NCBI RefSeq assembly: GCF_900167395.1
Contig: NZ_FUWK01000031.1
Location: 3,594 to 35,593, forward strand
Origin: Nitrosomonas europaea
Lineage (GTDB): Bacteria > Pseudomonadota > Gammaproteobacteria > Burkholderiales > Nitrosomonadaceae
Direction: 5' to 3'
Length of the DNA stretch: 32,000 bases
A program made the translations under genes and the position numbers. The notes beneath the pieces are model-generated. The model did no database searches. It was not told where the DNA came from and saw nothing but the letters and a program-made list of their open reading frames with translations. Shown one piece after another: positions 3,647 through 24,552 of the stretch (the first letter of the stretch is position 1; every line of letters begins with the position of its first letter).

Positions 3647-3675
3647 TTTTGTCTCCTTGAAATGAATGATCGTTT

Positions 3676-4542: not shown

Positions 4543-4638
4543 CGTTTTCTCCTTTTCTGTGATGCATTGACAGATTCTGCTTACTGGAAGCATTATCATC
4601 GTTGCTTTAACAGGAATAAATATCGTTTTATGGAAATA

Positions 4639-4661
4639 ATTGTTCCTGTATTGGCAACAAT
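4639..4661. promoter_or_regulatory. Putative LysR-type T-N11-A operator in the divergent pirin/LysR intergenic region
   Basis: ATTGTT-N11-AACAAT is a perfect 6-bp dyad with an 11-bp spacer, lying 12 bp upstream of the LysR start. The intergenic region 4543-4672 separates the divergent genes. Confidence 0.5.
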
Positions 4662-4672
4662 TAGGAGGCGTT

Positions 4673-6595: not shown

Positions 6596-6696
6596 GGATA
6601 GGTTCTTTAAAACAAATTTTTGATAACCATGATCGAAATACCAACGATTCAATCATGACTAAAGAATCTGCTGAAGGCGGAGACAGCCTGCGGTGA

Positions 6697-7440
6697 TCAG
6701 GCCGCAGACCGATTGAGAAAGTCAGTTTCGGAGTTGTGGCAATCACCCCGGGCAAGGGTTTCCACTGCCTTGCCGAAAGTGACCAGATCAGAACGCTCCA
6801 GCATGACGCAGTTTTTGCCGGTACGCTGACAATAGCGTCTGACGGTGAAAAAATCCTCATGATTGATACAGTCAACCGGGCAAATGATGCTGTCTACACG
6901 AGCGAGCAGGGCAAGCAGGCATTCACTGTTATCCTGTGCACCGCCACGAAACACCATGAAATGTCCCCCGGCAGCTTCAATCAACTGATGGTAATTCGGA
7001 TAGAGTGCAGCACGCCCACCGATACACAGGACAGACTGGCCCGCCAGATGATGACTGCTTTTCAGACGATCAATGGCCAGATAAGCATGATATTGATGCG
7101 GCAGGCCTGTTCTGATCCAGCGTAAATCCTCGTCATCAGATACTTGGGGGAGATGTGTGTCAGTACGGCTGTCGATCTGAACTTCAGTGTGAATAGAGTT
7201 TGCAGGTGAACGCCGGGTTGTATTCGCGGAAACAGTACCAGGCAAGGCCATACGGACCAGGTGATAAAGGTGCTTCAGCCGTGATTCCAGCTCTCGCCCC
7301 AGTTTCAGTGTGCGTTGTTTGTAGTGATGGAAAAGCGAATTGCAGAGGATTTCATTCTGATAGATTCCGGACAGTTTACCGGGATGGAGTTGCGCACCCT
7401 GATATGCCGGCTCCAGTACTGTTCTTTGGAAGAATTTCAT
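6697..7440 (-). CDS. DUF2325 domain protein (uncharacterised)
   Basis: The C-terminal about 95 aa (VLCIGGRAALYPNYHQLIEAAGGHFMVFRGG...VDSIICPVDCINHEDFFTVRRYCQRTGKNCVMLERSDLVTFGKAV) matches my memory of the DUF2325 pattern and is paralogous to the C-terminus of 11937..13256. The start is uncertain: ATG 7440 (MKFFQ) or GTG 7503. Confidence 0.7.
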   Translation of the reverse strand: MKFFQRTVLEPAYQGAQLHPGKLSGIYQNEILCNSLFHHYKQRTLKLGRELESRLKHLYHLVRMALPGTVSANTTRRSPANSIHTEVQIDSRTDTHLPQVSDDEDLRWIRTGLPHQYHAYLAIDRLKSSHHLAGQSVLCIGGRAALYPNYHQLIEAAGGHFMVFRGGAQDNSECLLALLARVDSIICPVDCINHEDFFTVRRYCQRTGKNCVMLERSDLVTFGKAVETLARGDCHNSETDFLNRSAA

Positions 7441-7592
7441 GATCGATTCCGTATCAGAAAAAAGGCTGGCTTGCCCGGGAGGAGGGGGCTGGCTTGCCGT
7501 CACAAATCACTGGAAGAGGAGAGAGAACTGCCAGTGATTACCAGGAAAGTTGATGTTTGTCAGCGTGAGAGTACATCATGCAGGTTTACGGA

Positions 7593-7816: not shown

Positions 7817-7835
7817 GAGAATGATTATCATTATA
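7817..7835. promoter_or_regulatory. Fur box upstream of hemP
   Basis: GAGAATGATTATCATTATA matches the classical consensus GATAATGATAATCATTATC at 16 of 19 positions. It lies 27 bp upstream of the hemP start in an AT-rich spacer. Confidence 0.75.
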
Positions 7836-7909: not shown

Positions 7910-10003
7910 TCAGAACTGGTATGAAACGGCCAGTTTGTAGTTGCGTCCCGGATCTCTTAGCACGTTAAGGTGGCGCCGGTAATCTTTATCGGTCAGATTG
8001 TCGATTCCGAAATCCAGCCGTACACCTTTTAATGAGCCATTCTGCGGCAGCCAGGTCAGTGTCAGGTCATGCAATGTATAGCCAGGTGTAGGCGTTCCAC
8101 CGGTTGGCACACGATTCTGTGCTTCGATGATGCTGCTGCGCCAGCCGAGGGAAAGGTCGTAGGTCGGCCAGTTCAGACCGGCCATTACAATCCATCTATC
8201 CGGCTGGACATTGGACAATACTCCTCCATCCGTCCGGTTGTAGCCGCGCGTCTGGGAATAGGAGAAGCCGGTATAGCCGTATTTGGCTGCATAGTTTGCC
8301 TCTATTTCGAATCCTTCCAGTACGGCATCACGCACATTGTCACTGGTCGTGACGCCTCCTCTGCCAGGGTTACCGGGGACCGGGAAGAACACGAAGTCGA
8401 CCATCAGGTCGACGAAATCTTTGACCTTGTTATGAAAATAGGCTCCCCGGATAGCCAGGCGATCATCCTCATACAGCAGATCAGATTTCTGTATGCGTGC
8501 TCCCACCTCTTTGTTGAATGCTGTTTCCGGTTTGAGATTGGGGTTGGGTACGAACAGATTGGCACAGCCCGGGCCGCAGGTGAAATGGGTCCCGGTGGTA
8601 AACAGTTCACCCAGTGTCGGAGCACGGAATGCTTCACTGTAATTGCCGATGAGTGAAAACCATTCGGTAACCTTGAACAATCCGCCGATTTTGAAGTTGA
8701 CGCGGTCATTTTTATTGGCGCTGGTAGCCATGCCTTCGGCTTCACTGCGGAAATAGTCCCAGCGTACACCGGGAATCAGCGACAACCGATCCCACAACGT
8801 AATTTCATCCTGCAGGAACACACCTACTACATCTGCGTTACCCCGGGGGAATTCCGGTCGTATGGCACCGTTACGTTTTCCTTTGGCTTCATTGTGAAAA
8901 TAATCGACCCCGTAGGTAATCAATTGGGTGGCGAAGCTGCTCAGATCGAGACGTGAGCTGTTACGCGCATTGATACCCGTGGTGGAAAAATCGGTCTCGT
9001 CACGTCTCCGGTCAAGCAGTCGTTTCTCAAGGCTGTGAGTCGTGTTGTGATAAACCAGCACTTCCGGGTTCAACCAGGTATTGTCAGGATTCTCGTAGCG
9101 ATAGCGCAATGTGTAATTGCGTTGTTCGGTGTCCCGATCTACCAGGGTATCCGGGGTGGAAGCCGTTTGTGAATTGGCAGGGACTTTGCCAGTCTGATCA
9201 AAGGTCTGCGTGGAAAATGTGAAGCGATGATCGCCCGGTGTCCAGTTGAATTTGGCCAGACCGGCATAGGATTGAAACTGAGAGTTTTGCAGTTTGGAAC
9301 CATCACCATGGCGGATATCATCGGCCGCATTGCGGTAAGAGAAATCCAGCAGATAGTCGAACTCTTCTCCAACCAGACCGTAAATGCTGGTTCCGGGGAT
9401 ATATTGCTCATTCATACTCTGGAATCCTCCCCTGACCTTGATCCCGGAGCGTTCACCCGGGCGCAGAAGATCGGTTGCATCCAGCGTGGTGAAGGAAATG
9501 ACACCACCGAGGGCACCACTTCCCCAGATTGCAGAAGCCGGGCCGCGCATGACATCTACTCGCTTGAGCAGGCTCGGGTCAGTGAAAATACGGGCATTAT
9601 GCCCCCGGTTGAAATCCTGTCTGGCTCCATCCAGCAGGAACAGAATGCGATCATCGGCCATGCCGCGTATCGTCGGGCTGATGCCCAGGTTGCGTGGCCC
9701 TCCGCCCAGATCGATATTGGGCAGATAACGCAGCACATCACCGATATCGGCTGCCTGTCGGGTTCGTATCTGTTCGGTATCGACTACACTGACTGATTCC
9801 GGTATTTCACTGACCTTCCGGCTGGTACGGGTAGCGGTAACGGTGACTTCCTGCAGATTGGTAGCGGTAATGAGTTTGCCGGCAGGCTCAGTATCGGCCG
9901 ATGCAGTTTCTGCATGAGCAGGATGGATAAACAGCGAAAAAGTAACGGTGGTGGCAAGATAAACCTTCCAGCCAGCCGAACGACATTTGAACCTTGAAAA
10001 CAT
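7910..10003 (-). CDS. TonB-dependent outer-membrane receptor, heme/hemoglobin receptor type
   Basis: Signal peptide ending in AHA, TonB-box-like EVTVTATR, a plug domain and a C-terminal YKLAVSYQF. The FRAP and NPNL boxes diagnostic of heme receptors are present with an intervening His (AFRAPTLGELFTTGTHFTCGPGCANLFVPNPNLKPE, roughly 8526-8634). Confidence 0.9.
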   Translation of the reverse strand: MFSRFKCRSAGWKVYLATTVTFSLFIHPAHAETASADTEPAGKLITATNLQEVTVTATRTSRKVSEIPESVSVVDTEQIRTRQAADIGDVLRYLPNIDLGGGPRNLGISPTIRGMADDRILFLLDGARQDFNRGHNARIFTDPSLLKRVDVMRGPASAIWGSGALGGVISFTTLDATDLLRPGERSGIKVRGGFQSMNEQYIPGTSIYGLVGEEFDYLLDFSYRNAADDIRHGDGSKLQNSQFQSYAGLAKFNWTPGDHRFTFSTQTFDQTGKVPANSQTASTPDTLVDRDTEQRNYTLRYRYENPDNTWLNPEVLVYHNTTHSLEKRLLDRRRDETDFSTTGINARNSSRLDLSSFATQLITYGVDYFHNEAKGKRNGAIRPEFPRGNADVVGVFLQDEITLWDRLSLIPGVRWDYFRSEAEGMATSANKNDRVNFKIGGLFKVTEWFSLIGNYSEAFRAPTLGELFTTGTHFTCGPGCANLFVPNPNLKPETAFNKEVGARIQKSDLLYEDDRLAIRGAYFHNKVKDFVDLMVDFVFFPVPGNPGRGGVTTSDNVRDAVLEGFEIEANYAAKYGYTGFSYSQTRGYNRTDGGVLSNVQPDRWIVMAGLNWPTYDLSLGWRSSIIEAQNRVPTGGTPTPGYTLHDLTLTWLPQNGSLKGVRLDFGIDNLTDKDYRRHLNVLRDPGRNYKLAVSYQF

Positions 10004-10135
10004 AACATTCCCCCAGAAAATAAATTATTTCCGGCTGACTGGCTCAATGCTGGCTGGCTGGTTAGAACAGGTCTTCAAATCAACCTGAATTTTTATTAGA
10101 TTCGGGTAATGGCAACAAGCAGCCATTACAGATAC

Positions 10136-11857
10136 TTAACGACCAAGTGCCTCTTTGTGCAGATTGATCCCCTGACGAATTTGTTCATCTACCCATTGAG
10201 TAAATAAGGGGTGGGGGGCAAAACCCTCACCCAGTTCGAATTCCAGTCCGGCAAGGAACCGCTTTTCCGGCCCGACGGAAGTGGTACGGGTAGGGATGAC
10301 GATCACCCTGTCACCTTGCTTGCTGGCTTCGGTGACCATGGCTCTTACTTTTTTGACCCAGGGTGCCCGTTTGTCCGGCCAATCCTCACGCCAGGTGGCA
10401 ACTTTGAATGCCTTGAATTTCTGGCCTCCCTGATCATGCATCTGGCTGGCAATGCTGTTGAGTTTCTCCAGCCATTCATCATTTTTCCGATCATCCTGAG
10501 TGCCGTGTGCGGTCAGAATCACTGTTTCTCTGGCCGGATCTTTGGAGAGTGCCAGTACGCGATCGAACAATGCACTGGCAAACAGGGGGTTGTCTTCGTA
10601 GCCGCCTGTCCAGATAACCGGCAGAGACGTCAGGATTCTGGGAACCGGTGTGCTGGATTTTGCATGTCCCCCATGCCCTCCATGGCTGCCGTGTCCACTG
10701 TTGTTGTCATGTATGTGGTCGTCCTGATTTTCGATATCCAGACCGGCCAGATAACCGATTTCATTGCGATAGGAGCTGCGGCTGGCAAAGGCGCTGACAA
10801 CAATGGCTGCTTTTGCGCCGCGCTGTTCCAGTTTGTGCAGGGCACGTTCGATCGTGTATGGATCCGCCATGGAAAAGGCAAATTCGATTTTGTAGCGTTT
10901 CATCAATGGCTCTACCGCTACGCGCAGATTTTCATTCCAGTGAAAGTCGGAGCCATGAGCAAACAGGATGACACCGGTATCTTCTTCGGCCAGAGGCAGA
11001 TTGCGGCTGGCTTCGCGCTCCATCCACATGGCCAGATGCTGTGGTTCGATCTCGAAGTGATTGAGTGCTGCGTTTTCAGGCAACAGCCGTTCCAGCCGTG
11101 ATTCGAGTGACATCATGCTGTCGTATTTGGGGCCGAGGGCGAATGCAATCACCTGATTTTTATTGTTTTTGGTAGCCGTGCCCAAAGATGACAATGCAGT
11201 GGCAAGCTGCTGTTTTGTCTTGTTGCCATAACTTTCCGGTTCTTCGTCTTTTTGTGCTTCCAGAAGAATCAGAGAGTTGATCGAACGAAAACTGACTCCC
11301 TGTGATGCCTGTTTGACAATGCGCATCCAGTCGTCATACATCGCCCGTCGGTGAGTATCGTTCTGTGCCCCGTAACCCACTACCAGCAGATGTTGCTGAG
11401 CGGTATGCTGCATGCCGCGCAAGCGGGTGGCGAGTGCCTCGACAGCGAAATAGCTTTCTCCGTAAGGTTTCGTGAAAGTCACAGGGATCGTCTGGTTTTC
11501 TTCCGTGACCAGTGTGCGGATGAGCTGATAGCGCGGTTCTGCAGCAGAAATGAATAGTGGCAGTACGACGATACGGCCTATATTCTGCTGGTGCAGGCTG
11601 GCGAGACCGGATTGCAGCGTTTGCCGGGTGCGCTCGTCAGTAACAAAGACCAGTGCAGCCGGGTGATTGGCTGAGAACGATGCAAAAGCATCACGGATTT
11701 CTTCATTACCGACAAATCCCCGGTCAGCTGCAACTATCAGGAAACCGGTCTGATCGGCCGGTTTCAGTTCGGCCGCGTGCGCCGATCCTGCAAGCAGAGC
11801 GAACATCAATAAATAAAACCATGCAGCGGTTTGGATTGTTTTAATCCAGAAAAGCAT
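10136..11857 (-). CDS. Secreted protein with four CbiX/SirB-like (class II chelatase fold) modules and a His-rich linker
   Basis: Start is the ATG at 11857 after GGAGGA. Signal peptide MLFWIKTIQTAAWFYLLMFALLAGSAHA. The two C-terminal modules keep the chelatase HG(S/T) motif (VILFAHGSDFHW; VILTAHGTQDDR) and a CbiX-like tail (GEGFAPHPLFTQWVDEQI). The two N-terminal modules are degenerate (IVAADRGF; LVVGYGAQND). The linker is DDHIHDNNSGHGSHGGHGGH (10664-10717). Confidence 0.75.
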   Translation of the reverse strand: MLFWIKTIQTAAWFYLLMFALLAGSAHAAELKPADQTGFLIVAADRGFVGNEEIRDAFASFSANHPAALVFVTDERTRQTLQSGLASLHQQNIGRIVVLPLFISAAEPRYQLIRTLVTEENQTIPVTFTKPYGESYFAVEALATRLRGMQHTAQQHLLVVGYGAQNDTHRRAMYDDWMRIVKQASQGVSFRSINSLILLEAQKDEEPESYGNKTKQQLATALSSLGTATKNNKNQVIAFALGPKYDSMMSLESRLERLLPENAALNHFEIEPQHLAMWMEREASRNLPLAEEDTGVILFAHGSDFHWNENLRVAVEPLMKRYKIEFAFSMADPYTIERALHKLEQRGAKAAIVVSAFASRSSYRNEIGYLAGLDIENQDDHIHDNNSGHGSHGGHGGHAKSSTPVPRILTSLPVIWTGGYEDNPLFASALFDRVLALSKDPARETVILTAHGTQDDRKNDEWLEKLNSIASQMHDQGGQKFKAFKVATWREDWPDKRAPWVKKVRAMVTEASKQGDRVIVIPTRTTSVGPEKRFLAGLEFELGEGFAPHPLFTQWVDEQIRQGINLHKEALGR

Positions 11858-11936
11858 ATTTCCTCCGGGTTGTGAATCGTAAAATGTATTGATGGATAAG
11901 GGTTCGTCTGTCATGCAGGCAGACTGCGCCGTAGTG

Positions 11937-13256
11937 TTATGTCGTGGTTTCAACTGTATCGACGGGAGAACTGTTGATACTGGCCTGGCCTGATGTGATT
12001 TTTGTCAGTGCTGCTGCAAAGCTGGAAACACCGGTACCCTTGAACAGCAGGCAGGGTTTATGCCCCAGCCGGCAAAGCCTTTTGACCTGATAGTAAGCGG
12101 CGTGACTGACGTAATCAGTCGGGCAGATCACTGCTGCAGCGCCATAGATCATTTCCGGCAAGCGCGAAAGTGCATCTTCCTGGCCGCCATCATGGTGTGA
12201 TAATTTGAGGCCAAGCTGTCTGGCAAGTGTGCGGTATTGCGGCAGCAGCGTGGACCGGCCGCCTACGCACAGAATGCACTCGTAAGCAGCCATTTTCGTT
12301 TCGGTTGTATCCGCTGTTTCTGTATCTGTGGTGCTGCCAGAATTGAGGGTCAGCAGCAGATTTTCCAGTGTATCCCGCTCGACGCGAAGGGTATCGCGTT
12401 CGTGATAGAGCTCGGTCAGGTTGTGGCAGGCATTTTTGAGTGATTGCTTGAGATCATCGGCCTGTGCTGCTTTGATCTGCAGCTGCTCGTTTTCCACCGT
12501 TAGTTGCATCAGGCGCTGACCCATTCGCAGTATGGCCTGGCCTGATTCCAGTGTTTCCAGCCGTTGGCGGGTGGTCTCGCTTTCTCGCCGGGATTGCTGC
12601 AACTGCTTGATTTCAGCCGCGGCCTGTTGCAGTTGCTGGCGCAGGCGCGATTCGGTCTGTACGTGCTTCTCTCTGATCTGTTCCAGTTGCCCGGCCAGTT
12701 CCTTCAGCATTTGTTCTGCCTGGTTGAGCCGGTGCTGCGTGGCTGACAGCTCGGCAACCGCTTCATGCATGTGCATGTGAACCCTGTCATGGATCTGCTC
12801 TCTGCCTTCGGAGCTGATCCGTTTGTGGGTGAGTGCTGCCCATAATGGACCGGCTATTCTTTCGTTGGTAAAACAGGTTTCCCAAAGCGCCAGCACCTCG
12901 CTGTCGGTTTTGGCGGCGTCGAACTGTTTAATGTGGCTTTCGTACAATCTGTCCAGATATTTATGAATCGTTTCCGATACGACGTTTCTGGAGGTTACGC
13001 GGCAGACTGCTTCAACGTGCAGATCGTGCGCATTGTTTATCGAAGCTTTGAAATGAAAGCGTTTGGCAAAACGCTCGAGATCCGAGGCGGGCAGACAAAG
13101 GCCGATGACAGGACAGTGATAGGTTCTGCTCAGTTCCCAGATTTTTGAACGCTTCACCGGGGGAGAAGGGGAATCGGTTACCATAATCTCGGGCGATCCA
13201 TCTCCTGCTAATAAAGCATCGATTCCCGACTGTCGCAGAATGGCAGGTGCATGCAT
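11937..13256 (-). CDS. DUF2325 domain protein with a long central coiled coil (uncharacterised)
   Basis: Start is the ATG at 13256 after GAGGAGA. The Gln/Leu/Glu-rich region of roughly 160 aa (from about LSATQHRLNQAEQMLKELAGQLEQIREKH... to ...ERDTLENLLLTL) looks like heptad repeats. The C-terminus ILCVGGRSTLLPQYRTLARQLGLKLSHHDGG...AVICPTDYVSHAAYYQVKRLCRLGHKPCLLFKGTGVSSF is a DUF2325-like domain. Confidence 0.75.
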   Translation of the reverse strand: MHAPAILRQSGIDALLAGDGSPEIMVTDSPSPPVKRSKIWELSRTYHCPVIGLCLPASDLERFAKRFHFKASINNAHDLHVEAVCRVTSRNVVSETIHKYLDRLYESHIKQFDAAKTDSEVLALWETCFTNERIAGPLWAALTHKRISSEGREQIHDRVHMHMHEAVAELSATQHRLNQAEQMLKELAGQLEQIREKHVQTESRLRQQLQQAAAEIKQLQQSRRESETTRQRLETLESGQAILRMGQRLMQLTVENEQLQIKAAQADDLKQSLKNACHNLTELYHERDTLRVERDTLENLLLTLNSGSTTDTETADTTETKMAAYECILCVGGRSTLLPQYRTLARQLGLKLSHHDGGQEDALSRLPEMIYGAAAVICPTDYVSHAAYYQVKRLCRLGHKPCLLFKGTGVSSFAAALTKITSGQASINSSPVDTVETTT

Positions 13257-13322
13257 ACGGTATCTCCTCGTGGTGAAAATATCAGTCTGGATCAGACAGA
13301 ATGGATTGCATTTAATACTAAT

Positions 13323-13341
13323 AATAACAATTATCATTAAC
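13323..13341. promoter_or_regulatory. Candidate Fur box upstream of the DUF2325/CbiX-like/heme-receptor gene string
   Basis: AATAACAATTATCATTAAC matches the Fur consensus at 14 of 19 positions. It lies 67 bp upstream of the 13256 start in an AT-rich stretch. Confidence 0.5.
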
Positions 13342-13411
13342 GTAATCAATTGTGTTGTGTATTGCAGCCGATTCTGCATGAATCATGTGGAGCTTCATTT
13401 GTACGGCGAGG

Positions 13412-13457
13412 TGCGACAATTTGTCGCATTTCCATCCTTTTTGGAATCGGTTATTCT
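13412..13457 (+). promoter_or_regulatory. 17-bp palindromic operator plus predicted sigma70 promoter (site A)
   Basis: TGCGACAATTTGTCGCA (13412-13428) is a perfect palindrome. It is followed directly by TTTCCA (-35-like), a 17-nt spacer and TATTCT (-10-like, 13452-13457). The downstream gene starts at 13477. Confidence 0.6.
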
Positions 13458-13476
13458 CCGAATTTTTGCGTGAACC

Positions 13477-14718
13477 ATGAAGAAGTCGACCTATTCTTTC
13501 CCCACGCTGGCCGGATTCTTTCTCACACTCGCTTCTGTGGTTGCAATCGCAGCCGGGCCAGGTACCGGCGACCCAACTCAGCAACCGTCTGTCATGCAAG
13601 CCTCAAAGTCCCCAAAGACCGCACTTGCGGTGGGAGTAACACTGGATCAGGAAGGGCAGTTGTGGCTGGCAAAAGTGATTGATCAGCGCTTGCTGGTTTC
13701 CAGATCAGAAGACGATGGCAAGCATTTTTCCGAATCAGTGACGGTTACTCCTGTGCCGGAAAACATAGGCAATGATGGCGAAAATCGTCCCAAGATCCAG
13801 GTGGCACGTGATGGCACCGTGCTGGTCACCTGGACGGAGCTGCTGGCGGAAAAATATGCCGGAAATATAAAGTTCTCGCGTTCGACCGATTCAGGTCGGA
13901 CGTTCTCAGAGCCAATCGTTCTGAACGATGATGGCCGTGTGACCAGTCACCGCTTCGATTCCCTGGCAATCGACGGAAAAGGAAGGGTGGTGGTGGCCTG
14001 GCTGGATGCCAGAGATCGTGATGCAGCGAGGGAAAAAGGGGAGGAGTTCAAGGGGGTCTCACTCTACAGCAGTCAGTCGTTCGACAATGGCGCGCACTTT
14101 GAGCCAAACCGGCAAATTCATCAGCATACCTGCGAATGCTGCCGGACTGCGCTTACCTGGACCAGCGAGGGGCCGGTCGTGCTGCTGCGAAATATTTTCG
14201 GCACCAATACCCGTGATTTTGCCGTGGCCAGCCTGGATAAAGTGGAAGAAGGTGTCAGAAGAGTCACCCGCGATGAGTGGCAGATCGACGCCTGCCCGCA
14301 CAACGGTGGCAGTCTTGCGACAGATGGCAGGGGGCAATTGCATCTGACCTGGTTCACCAGCGGCACCGCTGCACAGGGGCAGTTCTATAAACGGATCAGC
14401 GGCAACCAGGAATCGGAACCCATGGCGCTGGGTGATATGGATGCGCAGCCCAACCATGCTGCAGTGGTGGCGCATGGTGAAACCGTCATCCTCACCTGGC
14501 GCGAATTTGACGGAAACGTGTATTCCGCAAAGATGATGTTTTCGAATGACGGTGGCGAAACCTGGAGTGAGCCATGGCGCCTGATGTTGTCTGCCGGCGC
14601 AAACGATTACCCGGTACCACTCATCAGTGACAGTAAAGCTCTGGTTGTATGGAATACCGAAAATGAGGGTTTGCGGGTTTTGTCCGTTGAAAGAGTCATC
14701 AACCGATCCGACGGCTGA
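13477..14718 (+). CDS. Secreted BNR/Asp-box repeat beta-propeller protein (sialidase-fold-like) with a conserved Cys cluster
   Basis: N-terminal signal peptide. Four Asp-box-like repeats: SRSEDDGKHFS, SRSTDSGRTFS, SQSFDNGAHFE and SNDGGETWS. Motifs HTCECCR (14131-14142) and ACPHNGG (14293-14301). Paralogous to 24553..25791. Confidence 0.8.
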   Translation: MKKSTYSFPTLAGFFLTLASVVAIAAGPGTGDPTQQPSVMQASKSPKTALAVGVTLDQEGQLWLAKVIDQRLLVSRSEDDGKHFSESVTVTPVPENIGNDGENRPKIQVARDGTVLVTWTELLAEKYAGNIKFSRSTDSGRTFSEPIVLNDDGRVTSHRFDSLAIDGKGRVVVAWLDARDRDAAREKGEEFKGVSLYSSQSFDNGAHFEPNRQIHQHTCECCRTALTWTSEGPVVLLRNIFGTNTRDFAVASLDKVEEGVRRVTRDEWQIDACPHNGGSLATDGRGQLHLTWFTSGTAAQGQFYKRISGNQESEPMALGDMDAQPNHAAVVAHGETVILTWREFDGNVYSAKMMFSNDGGETWSEPWRLMLSAGANDYPVPLISDSKALVVWNTENEGLRVLSVERVINRSDG

Positions 14719-14826
14719 GAATCTTTAAAACAATAATAAGCAGCAGGCGGCTTATGACATGGATCGCAATGGCATCAGGCGCTGCTGCAAATACTAATTA
14801 CCAATAAAAATCGAAAGGATCAGACC

Positions 14827-17379
14827 ATGAAGCAGTTCCCTCTGGCACTGATTGGCCTGCTTTGCGCCTCATCAGCCTGGGCAGCTCAAGATGTCGAACA
14901 ACAGAAACAGTTTTCCCGCAAAAATCTTTCAACACAGGCAGACAACAGTTCAGACGGAATCCGGGTATCAGGCGCAAACGGGGAGCACGCAGGGGAGCAG
15001 TTGGCGCAAGCGGCGGACGAACAGGTGCAAACCGGTAAATCGAGCAATAGTGACAACCTGAATGAACAGAAAGAGAAGGATAGTGGTGAGCCGGCTGGCC
15101 AGAATGAAACTGTTTTCAGGGAAATGGTAATTACAGGTGAAATAGAGCGGGATTCGCACTTTACTTCGCCTTCGATGCGCGTAACCCGGGCGCAGGTCGA
15201 ACAGCAGAATGCGCAAACTACCGAAGAAGTGCTCAAATACATGCCCAGCCTGCAAATACGTCAGCGCTACGTGGGCGATCCGAATGGTGTGTTGGGGATT
15301 CGCGGAGCCGATATGTTTTCAACTGCGCGCAGCATGGTTTATGCCGATGGTCTGCCGTTGCACAACTTTCTGCAGGCTTCTTTCAATGGTGCGCCGCGCT
15401 GGTCGCTGGTCGGTCCTAACGAAATCGACTCGGTTGATGTCGTTTATGGCCCTTTCTCGGCCGAGTACAGCGGCAACTCGATAGGGGGCGTTGCCAATAT
15501 CAGAACGCGCATGCCGCACAAGCAGGAATTTTACTTTGAAGGCAGCCTGTTCATTCAGCCCTACAAGAATTACGGGGAGGATAAAGGAACATTCATTGGT
15601 GACCGGCAGTATTTTTCCTACGGCAACAGGATTCAGGACAAGTTTACGGTGTTCCTGGCTTACAACCGGCTGGAGGCTCAGGGTCAGCCAATGTCTTATT
15701 TTATTGATAATACCGGGTTGTCCAACGTGCCTGGAGGAACACCGGTGACGGGGGGTATCAGGACACCGGATACGCGCGGTACACCCAGTATCATTTATGG
15801 TGATACCGGTCCCGAAAAAGTGAATACTCACTTGTTCAAGGGTAAATTCGGGTACGACATCACTTCCGATCTGCAGGCGTTGTTTACCGTGGCGTATGAA
15901 GAGCGTACCCGCAACCAGAACCATCCGAGCAACTACCTGTATACGGCGAACGGGGATTATTTCTGGGGAGGGAATGCGCCTACCTGTAATTCGGTTGCCA
16001 CCTGTTCGACTCCGGGTAATGCTTCTCTGGATGGCACACGCTTCGATGTGGTGCGCAGTGGTTTCGGTGAAAGTCGTGACAAGCGTGAGACGCTGAATCT
16101 GGGTTTGTCGCTGCGCGGTGCGCTGACGCCCGACTGGGATGTCGATACCACATTCAGCTATTTCGATGTGTTGAAGGATATTCGTGCGACGGCGTTTTTC
16201 AATCATGCCGATCCGGGCAATACCGGTGCCGGGCAATTGCAGGATTTCCGCAAATTCAACTGGTGGAATTACGATCTCAAGCTGAGTACGCCCATGCTGC
16301 TGGGTTACGACAAACTGTCGTTTCTGGCCGGATACCATTTTGACCAGTACAACCTCAGTTTCCGGCAATATAGCCTGACCAGTTATGAAGATCTGACCCG
16401 GGGTGCATTGCAGGCCAACCGCAATAATGATGGCCGCACATCGACTCATGCGATCTTTGCCCAATCCATGTTCCGCTTCATGCCGGACTGGGATATTACC
16501 GCCGGTGTGCGTCAGGAATGGTGGGAAGCAAGCAAGGGAGTCGCCTCCAATGTGGCCGTGCCCGATCGCACCGAAACAGCCACTTCTCCGAAGGTTTCAC
16601 TGGGGTATGAGCCTGGACAGTGGAAATTCCGCTATTCCTTCGGGCGTGCGCACCGTTTCCCGGTGATTGCAGAGCTTTTTCAGTCACTTGGTACACCTAC
16701 CAGTATTCTGGTTGCGAATGCGACGCTCAAACCTGAAAATGGCGTGCATCATAATTTTATGATGGAGTACGGGTTACCGAAGGGTTATGTTCGTGTCAAC
16801 GTATTTCGGGATGACATCAAGGACGCCATCCGCCAGATCACTTCCGCCTCGGGAGCACTTACAACCAGCGCTTTCCAGAATATCGGTGAAGTTGGTACAA
16901 CCGGTGTGGAGCTGATCTTCGAACAGCGAAATATTCTGGGCTCACGGTTCGATTTTATGTTCAACGGTACCTGGATGAACTCAAAAGTGGAAGACGGGCC
17001 GGTCGTGAGATTTACCGAATCAACCGGCGTGCCTGCCAACTACAGTCTGACCGGGAAACAGGTCATTCGTCTGCCACACTGGCGAGTCAATGTTTTCGGT
17101 ACTTACCATGTGACGGATGCCTGGGATGTTTCCCTGTCCGGCCGCTATACCAGCGATTCCTATAATGATCCTGATAACAGGGACTATAAGAACAACGTAT
17201 TCGGTGCCCAGAGCGATTTCTTCTTCATGGATTTCAAGACCAGCTACCGGTATCGGTTCAACAACGGGCTGAAAAGCCGATTCTCATTCGGTATCAGCAA
17301 CCTCAACAACGACAAGGCCTGGGTATTTCATCCCTATCCGCAGCGTACCTATCTGCTCGAAGCTGCGTTCAGTTATTGA
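14827..17379 (+). CDS. TonB-dependent outer-membrane receptor with a long low-complexity N-terminal extension
   Basis: Signal peptide MKQFPLALIGLLCASSAWA, about 85 aa of Gln/Glu/Asp/Asn/Ser-rich sequence, then TonB-box-like ETVFREMVITG, a plug (LGIRGADMFSTARSMVYADGLPL) and a C-terminal strand LLEAAFSY. Confidence 0.9.
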   Translation: MKQFPLALIGLLCASSAWAAQDVEQQKQFSRKNLSTQADNSSDGIRVSGANGEHAGEQLAQAADEQVQTGKSSNSDNLNEQKEKDSGEPAGQNETVFREMVITGEIERDSHFTSPSMRVTRAQVEQQNAQTTEEVLKYMPSLQIRQRYVGDPNGVLGIRGADMFSTARSMVYADGLPLHNFLQASFNGAPRWSLVGPNEIDSVDVVYGPFSAEYSGNSIGGVANIRTRMPHKQEFYFEGSLFIQPYKNYGEDKGTFIGDRQYFSYGNRIQDKFTVFLAYNRLEAQGQPMSYFIDNTGLSNVPGGTPVTGGIRTPDTRGTPSIIYGDTGPEKVNTHLFKGKFGYDITSDLQALFTVAYEERTRNQNHPSNYLYTANGDYFWGGNAPTCNSVATCSTPGNASLDGTRFDVVRSGFGESRDKRETLNLGLSLRGALTPDWDVDTTFSYFDVLKDIRATAFFNHADPGNTGAGQLQDFRKFNWWNYDLKLSTPMLLGYDKLSFLAGYHFDQYNLSFRQYSLTSYEDLTRGALQANRNNDGRTSTHAIFAQSMFRFMPDWDITAGVRQEWWEASKGVASNVAVPDRTETATSPKVSLGYEPGQWKFRYSFGRAHRFPVIAELFQSLGTPTSILVANATLKPENGVHHNFMMEYGLPKGYVRVNVFRDDIKDAIRQITSASGALTTSAFQNIGEVGTTGVELIFEQRNILGSRFDFMFNGTWMNSKVEDGPVVRFTESTGVPANYSLTGKQVIRLPHWRVNVFGTYHVTDAWDVSLSGRYTSDSYNDPDNRDYKNNVFGAQSDFFFMDFKTSYRYRFNNGLKSRFSFGISNLNNDKAWVFHPYPQRTYLLEAAFSY

Positions 17380-17591
17380 AGTACAGGTGTTTTTCTGCCC
17401 GATTATGTGATCTGAAACATCAGTAAAAATATCTGCAGAGTGTGCTTACGTAATTGAAGCTACCGAGCTGTTAATGTGGGTTCGGTAGGATGAGGTTAAA
17501 GTATTGTGTTCGTGATGCTATGATGAGCCGACCCGATGCCGAAGAAAACCCCCGAGGTGGCGTCGGGTCTGCTGGTTTCAGGAGGAAACAC

Positions 17592-17870
17592 ATGAATCGC
17601 GATCGGGTTTTGGCAGTATTGCGCCATAGTAAACCTATGTTGGCCAGTCGGTACGGTGTTCGTCGTTTGGCTTTGTTCGGCTCCACAGCACGTGATGACA
17701 GTGATGTTGATGTGCTGATGGTATTCGATGGTGTGGCAAGTGCAGCGCGTTATTTTGGCGTTCAGTTCCACCTGGAAGATGCATTGGGTTGCTCGGTAGA
17801 TTTGGTATCCGAGAAGGCGCTGCGGCCGGAGCTGCGTCCTTTCATCGAAAAAGAAGCGGTTTATGTTTGA
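17592..17870 (+). CDS. Nucleotidyltransferase (MNT) domain protein, antitoxin of a type VII-like HEPN/MNT pair
   Basis: MNRDRVLAVLRHSKPMLASRYGVRRLALFGSTARDDSDVDVLMVF contains the GSxxR...D.D minimal nucleotidyltransferase motif. Start is the ATG at 17592 after CAGGAGGAAACAC. It overlaps the downstream HEPN reading frame by 8 nt. Confidence 0.88.
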   Translation: MNRDRVLAVLRHSKPMLASRYGVRRLALFGSTARDDSDVDVLMVFDGVASAARYFGVQFHLEDALGCSVDLVSEKALRPELRPFIEKEAVYV

Positions 17871-19693: not shown

Positions 19694-19836
19694 GAAACTT
19701 CTGAAAAACTACCTGCGTTGCCATTTTTGCGTTAAAAATCGGTATCAAAATGCTCATTTATTATATATAAACTCCGCTTTTTCGCCGATTTTTGCCTTGA
19801 ACTGACTACCTCGCCGACGTTTTTCAGAGGTTCCCT
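19692..19836 (+). repeat. MITE-like palindromic repeat, copy 1 (about 145 bp)
   Basis: About 90% identical to the reverse complement of 31510..31655. Its ends are inverted repeats (left ...CTTCTGAAAAAC; right end reverse complement AGGGAACCTCTGAAAAAC). It begins at the apeB stop codon. A solo end-like sequence, AACCTCTGATTAAATC, follows at about 19839-19854. Confidence 0.75.
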
Positions 19837-19893: not shown

Positions 19894-19939
19894 TGCGACA
19901 ATTTGTCACATTGTTATGCCCTTTCTCCCGCTTTATGAT
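19894..19939 (+). promoter_or_regulatory. 17-bp palindromic operator plus predicted sigma70 promoter (site B)
   Basis: TGCGACAATTTGTCACA (19894-19910) differs from the perfect palindrome at one position. It is followed directly by TTGTTA (-35), a 17-nt spacer and TATGAT (-10, 19934-19939). Confidence 0.6.
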
Positions 19940-20054
19940 GGGTGCCCTGCAGTAACTGCAATCACTTTAAGGGTTTCATAACAGGGATAAAAACATGAAG
20001 GGAACAAAAAGGTTTGAGCAATCGCGACAACATCTGCTCAAGGCTGGGGATGCC

Positions 20055-22118
20055 ATGATCAGAAAACCGCTGGCGGTTGCGATGGTGGGTGTGCTGGCGG
20101 GCATGACATCGGTATGGGCGCAGGCAGAAAGTAAAAAGGAACCGGTGCAACTGGAAACAATCGAGGTCGTGGCATCCGGGCAGGGGTCGCTTACGGTTCC
20201 AACGCTGGTTGAGGCGCAGCATGAAATGCGCAAAATCCCGGGCGGAGCAAATATCATCGACAGCGAATCTTATGCCAATGGCCGGGGTTCGACACTGCAG
20301 GATGCGCTGGGGTATTCGCCGGGAGTGTTTGTTCAATCCCGTTTCGGTGCCGAGGAAGCGCGTCTGTCAATTCGCGGTTCCGGCATCCAGCGTTTCTTTC
20401 ACTTGCGCGGCATCAAGATTCTGCAGGATGGTTCGCGGGTGAATCTGGCTGATGGTGGCGCGGATTTTCAGGTGATCGAGCCACTGGCAGCACGCTATAT
20501 CGAAGTTTATCGGGGTGCCAATGCATTGCAGTATGGATCGACCACGCTGGGTGGTGCGATCAATTTCGTCACGCCCACCGGCTACGATGCTGAACGTTTC
20601 CGCGCACGTGGTGAGGCAGGCAGCTTTGGTTATAACCGCCTGATGCTTTCTTCCGGTGGTGTGCATGGTTCTCTGGATTATTTTGCCAGTGTTTCCCGCT
20701 ACAGTCAGGATGGTTTCCGTGACTGGTCGGAGCAGGAAAACTGGCGCATGTTCAGCAATGCCGGGTATCGAATCACGCCCGATCTGGAAACCCGTTTTTA
20801 CCTGACCTATACCAAAACCAATTCACAATTGCCAGGCGAGCTGACCAAAGCAGAACTGAAAGACAACCCGAAGCAGGCAAATTTCTTTAACAGCAATATA
20901 GCGCGGTACAAGCGGGATTTTGATTTGATCCGCGTGGCCAATCGTACTGTGATGAAATTGGGTGAGGCCCAGCAACTGGAATTTTCCGCATTCTATGCGC
21001 ATAAAAAAGTATGGCACCCGATTTATGTGGTGATGGAGCAGCCTTCGCATGATTACGGCCTTGGGTTGCGCTATATCAACGAAATGCCGATTGCCGGCTG
21101 GCGTAACCGGTTTGTGGCCGGTTTCGAGCCAAGCTGGGGCAAGGTGATGGATAACCAGTTCGTTAATATCAATGGTGAGGCTGGTCCGCGAATTCACAAA
21201 TATGATCAGGATGTCAGCAGTTATACGGTGTATGGAGAGAATCAGTTTTACCTGCTGCCGGAACTTGCACTGGTGGTGGGTGCCCAGTACACCAACATGA
21301 CACTCAAACAGAAAGATCTGCATACGGGTGATCCGCGGCAGAAGAAAAACTACGAACGCTTCACCCCCAAGGCAGGACTCATCTATGACCTGAATCCGGA
21401 AATTCAATTCTTCACCAACGTCAGTACCAGTTTCGAGCCACCCAGTTTTTCCGAGCTGGCCAGTTGGCAGGCGACACCGGTACTGGCCAGTGCCCAGCGC
21501 GCACTGACCTTCGAAGTGGGAAGCCGGGGCCGTTTTGGTATCGCCGAATGGGATGTTGCATTTTATCGCTCACATGTGCGCAATGAATTGCTTGCCCGCG
21601 TGGATCCAGTGTCCCGTTTCCCGATAGGAATGGTCAATGCGGATAAAACCGTGCATCAGGGAGTGGAATTGGGTCTGGATATGGAACTGGCAAAAATGCT
21701 TTACCTGCGCCAGATGTATACATTCAGCGATTTCAAGTTTGATGGCGACCCGCTTTTCGGAAACAACCAGCTGGCCGGTATTCCGCGCCATTTCTACAAG
21801 GCGGAGCTGCTCTATCGCCATCCTGCCGGCTATTATGCCGGTCCGAACGTGGAATGGTCACCCGAGAAGTATTATGTGGATCATGCCAATACGTTGTCTG
21901 TCGATACCTATGCGCTGCTTGGATTCAAGCTGGGTAAGCGCAACAAAACCGGCTTTTCCTGGTTTGTCGAGGGGCGTAACCTGACTAACCAGAAATATGC
22001 GGCGACGGTTTCCGTAACCGACATCGCGGGGGTTGGTGCCTTTGGTGGCGCAAACTCGGCCTTGTTCTTCCCGGGAGATGGCCGCTCCTTCTTTGCTGGT
22101 CTGGAGTATCGGATGTAG
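20055..22118 (+). CDS. TonB-dependent outer-membrane receptor (paralog B)
   Basis: Signal peptide MIRKPLAVAMVGVLAGMTSVWAQA, TonB-box-like LETIEVVA and a plug (ARLSIRGSGIQRFFHLRGIKILQDG). The ORF is open from ATG 19995, but the first 20 codons are not conserved with paralog C, so I prefer ATG 20055. It ends ...FFAGLEYRM. Confidence 0.88.
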   Translation: MIRKPLAVAMVGVLAGMTSVWAQAESKKEPVQLETIEVVASGQGSLTVPTLVEAQHEMRKIPGGANIIDSESYANGRGSTLQDALGYSPGVFVQSRFGAEEARLSIRGSGIQRFFHLRGIKILQDGSRVNLADGGADFQVIEPLAARYIEVYRGANALQYGSTTLGGAINFVTPTGYDAERFRARGEAGSFGYNRLMLSSGGVHGSLDYFASVSRYSQDGFRDWSEQENWRMFSNAGYRITPDLETRFYLTYTKTNSQLPGELTKAELKDNPKQANFFNSNIARYKRDFDLIRVANRTVMKLGEAQQLEFSAFYAHKKVWHPIYVVMEQPSHDYGLGLRYINEMPIAGWRNRFVAGFEPSWGKVMDNQFVNINGEAGPRIHKYDQDVSSYTVYGENQFYLLPELALVVGAQYTNMTLKQKDLHTGDPRQKKNYERFTPKAGLIYDLNPEIQFFTNVSTSFEPPSFSELASWQATPVLASAQRALTFEVGSRGRFGIAEWDVAFYRSHVRNELLARVDPVSRFPIGMVNADKTVHQGVELGLDMELAKMLYLRQMYTFSDFKFDGDPLFGNNQLAGIPRHFYKAELLYRHPAGYYAGPNVEWSPEKYYVDHANTLSVDTYALLGFKLGKRNKTGFSWFVEGRNLTNQKYAATVSVTDIAGVGAFGGANSALFFPGDGRSFFAGLEYRM

Positions 22119-22254: not shown

Positions 22255-22300
22255 TGCGACAATTTGTCGCATTGTGATGTCATTCTGCCAGGCTTAAGAT
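22255..22300 (+). promoter_or_regulatory. 17-bp palindromic operator plus predicted sigma70 promoter (site C)
   Basis: TGCGACAATTTGTCGCA (22255-22271) is a perfect palindrome identical to site A. It is followed directly by TTGTGA (-35), a 17-nt spacer and TAAGAT (-10, 22295-22300). Confidence 0.6.
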
Positions 22301-22405
22301 TGGCAGCGTGCAGTAATTGCCAATACTAATAATTCCAGAGGGAAGAAAATGAAGGAAAAGAAGGTTAAACAAGCTGGGCTTTATGAGTCATCGGGTGGAG
22401 AAATC

Positions 22406-24475
22406 ATGGCCCGGAAGCCGCTTGTCATTGTGCTGGCAGGTGTATTGGCAGCTATGGCAGCGCCATTGGCGCAAGCTCATGAGGTTGACGAGCCAGTACA
22501 GCTTGAAACAATAAAAGTGACTACATCTAAGGATGATTTACCTCTTACTGTGCCAAGTCTGCCGGAAGTGCAACAGAAAATGCGTCAGATTCCAGGGGGC
22601 GCGAATGTGATTGACAGCGAATCTTATGCTACCGGCCGTGCCTCGACGTTGCAGGATGCATTGGGTTATTCACCGGGTGTGTTTGTTCAACCTCGTTTTG
22701 GTGCTGAAGAAGCACGCCTGTCAATTCGTGGTTCCGGTATTCAGCGTACTTTCCATATGCGCGGTATCAAACTGTTGCAGGATGGCTCCCGGCTGAATCT
22801 GGCCGATGGCGGAGGGGATTTTCAGGCAATCGAGCCGCTGGCCGCACGCTATATCGAGGTATACCGGGGAGGTAATGCGCTGCAGTTTGGATCGACCACA
22901 CTGGGTGGTGCGATCAATTTCGTTACCCCTACCGGTTATGATGCCGAACGTTTCCGTGCGCGTGGTGAGGCAGGCAGTTTTGGTTATAACCGTCTGATGC
23001 TCTCTTCCGGCGGTGTGCATGGCTCGCTGGATTATTTTGCCAGCGTTTCCCGCTACAGCCAGGATGGTTTCCGTGACTGGTCAGAGCAGGAAAACTGGCG
23101 CATGTTCAGTAATGTGGGTTATCGCGTCAACTCCGATCTGGAAACCCGTTTTTATCTCACTTATACCAAAACTGATTCACAATTGCCGGGTAACCTGACC
23201 AAGGCACAGTTGAGAGCCAATCCCAAACAAGCGAATGCGGTTAGTCTGGCTGGTCGGCAGAAGCGGGATTTTGATCTGATCCGGGTGGCCAATCGCACTG
23301 TGCTTAAGCTGGGAAATAGCCAGCAACTGGAATTCTCCGCATTCTATTCACACAAGAAGTTGTGGCATCCGATCTTTCAGGTGCTGGATCAGCCATCGCA
23401 TGATTATGGCCTGGGGTTGCGCTATATAAATGAGATGCCGATTGCTGGCTGGCGCAACCGTTTTGTAGTTGGTTTCGAGCCGAGCTGGGGCACTGTTATG
23501 GATAATCGCTTCTTCAATAATGGTGGTAGAGCGGGTGCACGTACAGCCAAGTTTGATCAGAGTGCCAGCACTTATGACGTTTATGCGGAAGATCAGCTGT
23601 ACGTATTGCCAGAACTGTCACTGGTTGTGGGTGCGCAGTACAGTTATACGACACGTAAACAAAAGGATCTGTTTGGAGCAGGCGCCCAGGATAGAAGCAA
23701 GAACTACCAGCGCTTCACTCCCAAAGCAGGATTGATTTATGAGCTGAATCCGCATATTCAGTTTTTCAGTAACGTCAGTACCAGTTTTGAGCCTCCCAGT
23801 TTTTCCGAACTGACTGCCGGGCCGGTGGTTGCTCCGGTATTTGCAAAAGCTCAACGTGCGATCACATTTGAAGTTGGTAGCCGAGGTCATTTCGGTATAG
23901 CCGAATGGGATGTGGCGCTGTATCGGGCGCATGTACGTAATGAGTTGCTTGCCCGAGTGGATCCTATTACCAGTTCTTCACTGGGTACGGTCAATGCGGA
24001 TAAAACAGTGCATCAGGGGGTTGAACTGGGCCTTGATATCGAGCTGGTGAAAATGTTCTATTTGCGCCAGATGTACCTGTTCAATGATTTCAAATTCGAT
24101 GGGGATGCTTCTTTCGGTAATAATCAGTTAGCCGGCATCCCACGTCATTTCTACAAAGCGGAACTGACTTACCGTCATGCTGATGGATACTACGCCGGTC
24201 CGAATGTAGAATGGTCACCTCAGAAATACTATGTGGACCATGCCAATACGGTATATGCCAATTCCTATGCGCTGCTGGGTTTCAAAATCGGTAAACGGAG
24301 TAAGAGTGGATTTTCCTGGTTTGCAGAGGCACGTAACCTGACTGATCAGAAATACGCAGCTACTACAGGCGTAACAGATGTGGTTAAGTACAATAATGCG
24401 GGTGTTCTTCAGGATCAATTTTTCCTTCCAGGAGATGGACGCTCTTTCTTCGCGGGTCTCGAATATCGGATGTAG
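22406..24475 (+). CDS. TonB-dependent outer-membrane receptor (paralog C)
   Basis: Signal peptide MARKPLVIVLAGVLAAMAAPLAQA and TonB-box-like LETIKVTT. By eye it is highly similar to receptor B over the full length. The ORF is open from ATG 22349, but ATG 22406 (after GGTGGAGAAATC) is preferred by comparison with the paralog. It ends ...FFAGLEYRM. Confidence 0.88.
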   Translation: MARKPLVIVLAGVLAAMAAPLAQAHEVDEPVQLETIKVTTSKDDLPLTVPSLPEVQQKMRQIPGGANVIDSESYATGRASTLQDALGYSPGVFVQPRFGAEEARLSIRGSGIQRTFHMRGIKLLQDGSRLNLADGGGDFQAIEPLAARYIEVYRGGNALQFGSTTLGGAINFVTPTGYDAERFRARGEAGSFGYNRLMLSSGGVHGSLDYFASVSRYSQDGFRDWSEQENWRMFSNVGYRVNSDLETRFYLTYTKTDSQLPGNLTKAQLRANPKQANAVSLAGRQKRDFDLIRVANRTVLKLGNSQQLEFSAFYSHKKLWHPIFQVLDQPSHDYGLGLRYINEMPIAGWRNRFVVGFEPSWGTVMDNRFFNNGGRAGARTAKFDQSASTYDVYAEDQLYVLPELSLVVGAQYSYTTRKQKDLFGAGAQDRSKNYQRFTPKAGLIYELNPHIQFFSNVSTSFEPPSFSELTAGPVVAPVFAKAQRAITFEVGSRGHFGIAEWDVALYRAHVRNELLARVDPITSSSLGTVNADKTVHQGVELGLDIELVKMFYLRQMYLFNDFKFDGDASFGNNQLAGIPRHFYKAELTYRHADGYYAGPNVEWSPQKYYVDHANTVYANSYALLGFKIGKRSKSGFSWFAEARNLTDQKYAATTGVTDVVKYNNAGVLQDQFFLPGDGRSFFAGLEYRM

Positions 24476-24552
24476 AAATAATGATGGGAGTGGTGAGCTC
24501 ATAAACAAGCCATCTTCAGGTTTGATTGGCGATTAATTTCAAGGGATCGACG

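Follow-up and report, generated by a model that had tools for sequence, protein, structure and literature searches.

The 32,000-nucleotide stretch of Nitrosomonas europaea DNA considered here (the window) carries, at positions 13412–17379, a palindrome followed by a putative two-gene operon, in which the gene of a secreted beta-propeller protein (propeller A) precedes that of a TonB-dependent receptor (TBDR), here called TBDR A. This operon is a reduced copy of a wider module that, when complete, consists of a TBDR, a propeller with a cysteine motif and a thioredoxin-like protein with a CxxC motif. The proposal developed below, to which a probability of about 0.5 is assigned, is that the A pair is the thioredoxin-less form of this module, that a regulator of the RegA type activates it and that it serves to import copper.

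On the + strand of the window the module is represented by three units, each preceded by a copy of the palindrome. The first is the A pair itself: propeller A (13477–14718, + strand, 413 residues) is a secreted BNR/Asp-box protein with matches to Pfam BNR_2 and BNR, and TBDR A (14827–17379, +, 850 residues) matches Plug and TonB_dep_Rec_b-barrel. The second is TBDR B alone (19995–22118, +), and the third is a complete copy of the module, opened by TBDR C (22349–24475, +) and continued by propeller C (24526–25791, +, with the likely start at the ATG at 24553) and a secreted thioredoxin-like protein (25788–26285, +) whose start and the stop codon of propeller C overlap. The propellers have 46% identity over 363 residues (E 7e-120) and share the same Cys/His hallmark, which bears out the preliminary description of this DNA, where the gene at 13477–14718 was taken for a paralogue of the other. 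That description also set TBDR A apart from the two further receptors, rightly so: TBDR B and TBDR C are tandem duplicates with 76% identity, whereas TBDR A shows no significant similarity to TBDR C (BLASTP, best E 0.06). Both peptides that it quoted are found in the window, and no thioredoxin-like gene adjoins copy A, as it had stated. In Nitrosomonas sp. HPC101, TBDR B is reduced to the palindrome, the promoter and the first codons, followed by a stop (L001, 10376–10480, compared with 19894–20010 of the window; numbers preceded by L denote loci), so that the B/C duplication is recent or has been lost in HPC101.

The genes of the A pair are separated by 108 nucleotides (14719–14826, +), in which neither a T-tract terminator, nor any terminator-like site on the + strand, nor a second palindrome was found. 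A stem-loop in this gap was considered as a terminator or regulator and dropped, given that its fold is unremarkable (z-score −1.43) and that it is not conserved in L001, where a shorter gap retains only part of the stem. In an Rfam scan the window gave no match, hence no riboswitch to account for the leaders. Among its homologues, the propeller is closest to Nitrosomonas and Nitrosospira proteins labelled "sialidase family protein", and the best genomic match is in N. eutropha. Literature searches on BNR/sialidase proteins in combination with TonB, Nitrosomonas, copper or thioredoxin found nothing relevant to the module, which is uncharacterised in the literature searched.

The main evidence for a module comes from its conservation. 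The propeller family is large (8049 representatives at E < 1e-3 and 240 at E < 1e-30), and a scan of one genome per species recovered at least 597 propeller-encoding loci, the best 80 of which were examined after annotation by BLAST against the proteins of the window. These 80 loci belong to Nitrosomonas, Nitrosospira, Nitrosovibrio, Thiobacillus and other Hydrogenophilales, Sulfuricella, Gallionellaceae, Nitrotoga, Azospira and Azonexus, as well as to Chromatiales, Thiohalomonas, Acidiferrobacterales, Muproteobacteria and one Nitrospiria genome, so that apart from the last the pairing with a receptor extends over chemolithotrophs of the beta- and gammaproteobacteria. In nearly all of them the propeller adjoins a TBDR, and usually a thioredoxin-like protein too. 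Three gene orders account for most loci: TBDR–propeller–thioredoxin (32 loci), propeller–TBDR (25), which is the order of the Nitrosomonadaceae, and propeller–thioredoxin–TBDR (11), which is that of Thiobacillus and other Hydrogenophilales; the remainder are mostly truncated contigs. The A-type pair with its palindrome is not confined to one genome: it is found with unchanged synteny in Nitrosomonas sp. HPC101, in a wholly different neighbourhood in Nitrosospira briensis and other Nitrosospira, and also in Nitrosovibrio. Genes for TonB, ExbB and ExbD follow the module in 26 loci, and a polyferredoxin together with a DsbD_2/CcdA-like membrane protein lies near it in five to six.

The adjacent receptors fall into four sequence clusters, namely T0 (38 loci, among them TBDR A), T1 (26 loci), T3 (2 loci) and T2, which includes TBDR B and TBDR C and comes from Nitrosomonas and one Pseudomonadales genome. 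When receptor type is followed along a neighbour-joining tree of the propellers, it switches several times within clades: T1 gives way to T0 at least four times, the reverse change is seen inside the Thiobacillus clade, and T3 turns up twice. The propeller and the thioredoxin-like protein are the constant parts of the module and the receptor is the exchangeable one. The two constant parts can also be joined in a single chain, since 21 of the 150 best representatives of the propeller family carry a C-terminal domain homologous to the thioredoxin-like protein of the window (E values down to 1e-38). In L019, L020 and L026 a second, divergent propeller paralogue, approximately 36% identical to propeller C, lies upstream of propeller A.

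Taken together, the conserved linkage, the swaps of receptor, the natural fusions and the TonB-ExbB-ExbD neighbours indicate that these genes very probably form a functional module under a shared regulator. The preliminary description, which knew two receptor lineages in two gene orders, had already argued for a partnership rather than a chance neighbourhood, and the four lineages, three orders and swaps inside propeller clades now support it. Within the tree, the A-type of the Nitrosomonadaceae nests in the clade with the order propeller–thioredoxin–T0 receptor, so the A-type is a derivative that lost its thioredoxin gene. It had been suggested that copy A might share the thioredoxin-like gene at 25788; this is possible and is not required, and in the Nitrosospira loci no thioredoxin-like gene lies within 10 kb of the A-type pair, nor is there any Nitrosospira C-type locus among the 80.

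The second line of evidence is the palindrome, TGCGACAATTTGTCGCA. The window contains three copies, located 48–85 nucleotides 5' of a start codon: site A (13412–13428, +), which reads TGCGACA-ATT-TGTCGCA without mismatch and is a candidate RegA/PrrA/RegR-type site; site B (19894–19910, +), with one mismatch, 5' of TBDR B; and site C (22255–22271, +), which is exact and lies 5' of TBDR C. If three mismatches are allowed, the count in the window is not unusual (4 found against 1.9 expected). Three near-perfect intergenic palindromes, together with their conservation elsewhere, nevertheless far exceed chance: variants of the consensus TGCGRCA-N3-TGYCGCA stand 5' of the first module gene in most loci and across taxa, the palindrome is kept 5' of the orthologous operon in L001, L004, L006 and many further loci, and 112 sites are found in 1.26 Mb of sequence where composition-preserving shuffles lead one to expect 1.85. 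A metagenome scan for the exact 17-mer, blind to context, returned 127 occurrences in 119 contigs, of which 119 occurrences are intergenic and 8 lie inside long open reading frames (ORFs). Some matches in marine metagenomes are in phage-like contigs (L118, 4715–6178; L097, L120 and L147), which carry a terminase and shared ORF families; these contigs are probably unrelated to the regulon and were set aside.

The position of the palindrome relative to the promoter is constant. A TANNNT hexamer occurs exactly 23 nucleotides past the palindrome at 63 of the 75 sites that lie upstream of modules, and TTCCC-like bases come directly after the palindrome. All three sites of the window obey this rule: the putative promoter of the A pair (13429–13457, +) consists of a weak −35-like TTTCCA (13429–13434) and a −10-like TATTCT (13452–13457), and the −10-like hexamers TATGAT and TAAGAT lie 23 nucleotides downstream of sites B and C, respectively. 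A dimer site that abuts a weak −35 element at a fixed distance from the −10 is more readily understood as the site of an activator, centred near −44, than as the operator of a repressor, and we infer activation from this geometry. The preliminary description spoke of one operator shared by the three units. The shared cis-element stands, with 0, 1 and 0 mismatches; the meaning of a repressor's operator does not, the site being placed as an activator's would be, against the −35 position.

Palindromes are not restricted to the module genes themselves, and within the loci further copies precede other TBDRs, tonB, a redoxin gene, RIO-type kinases and nosZ. In Nitrosospira the palindrome lies 5' of RIO1-type kinase genes (L016, 9040–9885; L020, 2109–2951; L028, 5758–6726) and of the gene of an RTX calcium-binding protein (L020, 3383–4237), and in Thiobacillus it lies 5' of a redoxin gene (L034, 16241–16966), so that the regulon is wider than the uptake module. 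Overlapping pairs of palindromes, offset by 15 nucleotides, are present in L019 (2981–3012), L020 (8037–8068), L026 (3838–3869) and L074 (795–826).

Which regulator would bind this site was approached by comparing it, by hand, with the motifs of RegA, PrrA and RegR that are quoted in the literature (PMC5506826). GCGACAATTTGTCGC fits the RegA-family motif SSGNVRDNHYSNCSS with no mismatch and GNGRCRTTNNGNCGC with one, and TGCGACAATTTGTCGCA fits YSCGGC-N5-GWCRMA with one; expressed by motif, the mismatches are 0 for RegA, 1 for PrrA and 1 for RegR. The palindrome also shares the 17-bp geometry of the PrrA motif, TGCGNC-N5-GNCGCA. When the loci were searched for regA-like genes with a RegA query sequence, such genes, with a regB-like gene adjacent, were found beside the module in five unrelated genomes: the pair is divergent from it with the palindrome in between in L042, L058, L077 and L082, and directly downstream in L062. 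Three contigs picked by the 17-mer alone likewise contain regBA, directly beside the site in L132 and L176 and nearby in L179. By a wide margin, the best NCBIfam models of the linked proteins are ActR_PrrA and ActS_PrrB, and the kinase of L077 has the quinone-site motif GGxxNPF and a cysteine in the expected region. The helix-turn-helix of the linked response regulators is nearly identical, and their recognition helix virtually identical, to that of RegA. On these grounds the RegA family is the favoured candidate for the regulator of the module, with somewhat better than an even chance.

There is a precedent for this type of control, as well as several differences from it. RegB/RegA (PrrBA, ActSR, RegSR, RoxSR) is a global redox two-component system, on which, in Methylomonas sp. 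DH-1, the expression of TBDR, tonB(-exbBD) and feo genes is reported to depend (PMC13274454). The Methylomonas genes concerned are classic iron/haem loci and not this module. The sites of Rhodobacter are degenerate, whereas the module site is a near-perfect palindrome whose place in the promoter is fixed, and the classic targets of the family are photosynthesis and oxidase genes, whereas the targets of the palindrome here are uptake genes.

Several results weigh against the assignment to RegA. The linked regulators fall below the NCBIfam cut-offs (194–211 bits against 250 for ActR_PrrA_rreg, and 233–293 against 350 for ActS_PrrB_HisK); neither regB nor regA is present in the 32-kb window or in the Nitrosomonadaceae loci examined; two homologue searches returned no Nitrosomonas protein among the best 120 matches; and in Methylomonas the genes on which RegA acts are iron genes, its effect on the TBDR being indirect (PMC13274454). 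The identity of the regulator in Nitrosomonas, presumably of the RegA type, is consequently the weakest link of the argument. One may therefore suppose that the linkage of the module is real and that the palindrome is bound by something else, either another response regulator with a Fis-type helix-turn-helix, such as NtrX, or a metal sensor, the resemblance to RegA motifs and the proximity of regBA in some genomes being coincidental or a matter of co-regulation. This would agree with the lack of a Nitrosomonas RegA or RegB among those matches, with the degeneracy of the published RegA-family motifs, by which a study of Acidithiobacillus could not find real sites (PMC5506826), and with the Thiobacillus loci, where a sigma-54-type response regulator and a kinase are encoded upstream instead. 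It is harder to reconcile with eight independent contigs in which regBA is linked to the palindrome, three being picked without regard to gene content, with the 17-bp geometry and with the virtual identity of the recognition helix to that of RegA, and a regulator from outside the RegA family is considered rather unlikely.

The substrate has to be approached through the proteins, of which the propeller is the most distinctive. Propeller A reaches 33.4 bits against Pfam BNR_2 (cut-off 31.4) and has BNR repeats, or Asp-boxes (S-x-D-x-G-x-T-W). Its AlphaFold2 model is confident and all-beta (predicted local distance difference test score, pLDDT, 84.8), and a Foldseek search of the PDB found only generic propellers at template-modelling (TM) scores of approximately 0.45–0.55 and 10–16% identity. 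The family has an invariant hallmark, H-x-C-E-C-C-R … A-C-P-H-H-G, which in copy A corresponds to residues C219, C221, C222, C273 and H275. Of 107 family representatives, 52 have a stretch rich in His or in His and Met (such as HEH, HGHEH or HMHMGH) directly behind the signal peptide, and propeller C has E-Q-H-A-H past its predicted signal peptide. The CxCC of the hallmark recalls CopG, a periplasmic protein in which CxCC and methionines bind a tetranuclear copper cluster (PMC7558416). In CopG, which serves copper resistance, the surrounding fold is small and thioredoxin-like, whereas the CxCC of the module lies in a hairpin of a propeller of about 370 residues that also contains CPH, with no adjacent conserved Met; the resemblance is one of motif only and does not imply homology.

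The thioredoxin-like protein (25788–26285) has a signal peptide and a CTYC motif, placed in W-S-x-x-C52-x-x-C55, together with a cis-Pro loop; W48, S49, C52, C55 and the loop G-E-L-P-R are invariant or nearly so in 58 homologues. It scores 26.4 bits against Pfam AhpC-TSA (cut-off 26), and the nearest solved proteins, all of them weak matches, are YkuV, DsbF, MPT53, ResA and TlpA, with E values between 0.2 and 8e-4 for the distant relationship to TlpA and ResA. The protein has the features of the TlpA/ResA/DsbE type (secretion, a thioredoxin fold, WxxxCxxC and the cis-Pro), and it has none of those looked for in Sco1/SenC: the motif is CxxC and not CxxxC, there is no conserved His and no match to the SCO1-SenC model of Pfam. 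With its conserved WSxxCxxC and cis-Pro loop, and no conserved His, its appearance is that of a TlpA/ResA-like reductase, not of a Sco protein. Thioredoxins of the TlpA type reduce copper-binding cysteines in oxidase assembly (PMC7558416). The module would resemble the TlpA-ScoI-PCuAC pathway in that a periplasmic CxxC reductase would, on this proposal, maintain a partner's metal-binding cysteines in the reduced state, with PCuAC as a recurrent neighbour; it differs in that the partner is a beta-propeller, sometimes fused to the thioredoxin, and not Sco or CoxB.

The module probably serves the uptake of a redox-active metal, with copper as the candidate. PCuAC adjoins the module in seven to eight loci; the palindrome stands directly 5' of PCuAC-MbnP (L146), of PepSY_TM-PCuAC (L132), of a weak match to CorA/MopE-like proteins (L201) and of nosZ (L077); and sodC lies upstream of the propeller in Thiobacillus. 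It is this context of PCuAC, MbnP, nosZ and SodC, added to the invariant CxCC…CPH and the His/Met-rich N-termini, that suggests copper, an assignment held tentatively and at a little less than even odds. Known systems offer a partial parallel, since OprC/NosA, as well as copper-starvation uptake loci such as those that combine MbnT with MbnE and MbnPH, pair a TBDR with periplasmic accessories that supply metal to cuproenzymes, and copper-related genes (PCuAC, MbnP, nosZ, PepSY_TM) likewise surround the module or its palindrome. They have no counterpart to the Cys-motif propeller and the dedicated thioredoxin of the module, whose substrate is here proposed from context.

The receptors, on the other hand, speak against copper. 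TBDR A, in which a low-complexity N-terminal extension is followed by the plug and the barrel, and which is 72% identical to the receptor next to the propeller in Nitrosospira briensis, scores 26 bits against the TonB-copper model TIGR01778, whose cut-off is 472, and the TonB-copper model is absent among the hits at E ≤ 1e-25 of seven module receptors from other genomes. At a threshold of 85%, T0, T1 and T2 have no conserved Cys column, only a few His columns and no CxxxM-HxM; no receptor lineage reaches a curated NCBIfam cut-off, and none resembles OprC/NosA. The closest solved relatives of TBDR B and TBDR C are YncD and PqqU (E 5e-39), with 154–155 bits against the corresponding model NF041535 (cut-off 1200). 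To this may be added that the adjacency to PCuAC concerns only about one tenth of the loci, and that propeller A has neither the N-terminal His motif nor the thioredoxin partner.

The receptors also bear on a different proposal, namely that the module is a redox-regulated system for iron or haem, in which a ferric or haem compound would enter through the receptor, its iron would be freed or reduced in the periplasm by the propeller and the thioredoxin-like protein, and RegBA would increase the supply of iron when respiration is limited. The T0 and T3 receptors obtain their best scores, below the cut-offs, against models of haem/haemoglobin and siderophore receptors; the RegBA-dependent genes of Methylomonas, feo included, point in the same direction; and in Nitrosomonas the operon is divergent from one with a Fur box and a haem-type receptor. 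The latter (7910–13379, − strand) encodes a DUF2325 protein of 480 residues, a CbiX-ferrochelatase-like protein of 605 residues and the haem-type TBDR, and is conserved in Nitrosomonas. Its promoter-like site on the − strand (13349–13321) lies beneath a Fur-box-like site (13329–13347, −, 15 of 19 positions matching), within the intergenic region shared with the module; better matches occupy the same place in L001 (2 mismatches) and in L009 and L051 (3 mismatches each). Fur control of the module was considered and rejected, because this sole Fur-like box overlaps the divergent promoter and the promoters of the module elsewhere are without Fur boxes. Against iron there is also the fact that no iron ABC transporter, Feo or haem oxygenase/degradase recurs beside the module, that the recurring accessory genes are copper-related and that the adjacency to the haem operon is specific to Nitrosomonas. 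An iron or haem system is judged unlikely.

It is highly improbable that the propeller is a genuine sialidase-type glycoside hydrolase and the module a carbohydrate-utilisation locus comparable to the receptor-plus-hydrolase loci of Xanthomonas and Bacteroidota: the database labels ("sialidase family protein", "exo-alpha-sialidase"), the BNR_2 match and the Asp-boxes, the sialidases, other glycoside hydrolases and lyases at the top of the fold matches, and several conserved arginines and acidic residues (Arg, Asp, Glu and Tyr columns of the alignment) are outweighed by a similarity to characterised sialidases that is marginal and confined to the Asp-box region instead of spanning the catalytic domain (phmmer against the PDB with a single propeller, E 0.012 over some 80 residues; family profile against solved sialidases, E 7.5e-4, positions 66–160 only), by TM scores of only about 0.5, by hosts that are mainly chemolithoautotrophs, by the lack of any sugar transporter or catabolic gene recurring nearby, and by features unparalleled in sialidase loci, namely the invariant Cys cluster, a thiol-disulfide oxidoreductase that is dedicated or fused, neighbouring copper chaperones and the RegA-type site. 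What the propeller shares with GH33 sialidases and other BNR propellers is the fold and the Asp-box repeats; it differs from them in genomic context, in the cysteine hallmark, in the biology of its hosts and in the sequence outside the Asp-boxes. NCBIfam assigned no family to propellers A and C, to the thioredoxin-like protein or to any module receptor.

Other features of the window lie outside the module. A second DUF2325 gene (6697–7503) stands behind a good Fur box (7817–7835, 2 mismatches), and the chelatase-like protein next to the haem receptor could be part of a haem/tetrapyrrole dechelatase system. Between TBDR A and an M18 aminopeptidase, the interval 17490–17870 contains an ORF of 126 residues with a nucleotidyltransferase domain (NTP_transf_2/Polbeta), perhaps the antitoxin-like member of an MNT/HEPN pair. 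Two inverted copies of an element of approximately 133 nucleotides (19702–19834 and 31512–31644), 95% identical, with 14-nucleotide terminal inverted repeats and resembling a miniature inverted-repeat transposable element, bracket an 11.7-kb stretch with TBDR B, TBDR C, propeller C, the thioredoxin-like gene and genes of fatty-acid oxidation. The regions 5600–6652 (− strand) and 3266–5590 contain the gene of a two-domain multicopper oxidase and a pirin-DoxX pair from which a LysR regulator diverges; the oxidase, itself a cuproenzyme, has no link to the palindrome.

Returning to copper import under RegA-type activation, the steps may be pictured as follows. An impairment of respiratory electron flow, for example by haem-copper enzymes that are short of metal, would be perceived by RegB, the quinone- and redox-sensing kinase that partners response regulators of the RegA/PrrA/ActR type, and phosphorylated RegA would activate the module. 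The receptor would then import copper, or else some other metal (or metal complex) that is thiophilic and redox-active, and the propeller would take it up at a candidate Cys4/His site. The thioredoxin-like partner would keep the cysteines of the propeller, or the metal, in the reduced state, fed by a membrane protein of the CcdA/DsbD_2 type where one is present, and the metal would finally pass to chaperones such as PCuAC.

Ammonia oxidisers, like other chemolithotrophs, rely strongly on enzymes of copper and iron and, to our knowledge, the passage of copper across their outer membrane is largely uncharted. A broader proposal, speculative and on balance doubtful, is that many chemolithoautotrophs and their relatives (oxidisers of ammonia, nitrite, sulfur and iron among them) share an undescribed pathway of copper acquisition, switched by RegB/RegA rather than by a direct copper sensor, in which interchangeable TBDRs would deliver the metal to a new family of periplasmic Cys4/His propeller metalloproteins, kept reduced by a dedicated and sometimes fused thioredoxin, and from these to PCuAC-type chaperones and the dependent enzymes (haem-copper oxidases, NosZ and ammonia monooxygenase). 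If the reading of the module given here is right, a family labelled "sialidase" in hundreds of genomes would be misnamed, a new receptor-propeller-thioredoxin uptake module would be defined, and metal acquisition would be coupled to RegBA, the respiratory redox sensor, by way of an unusually clean and predictable promoter. The conserved palindrome provides a handle for mapping the regulon in any genome, and these readings of the module are directly testable in cultivable Nitrosomonas, Nitrosospira and Thiobacillus.

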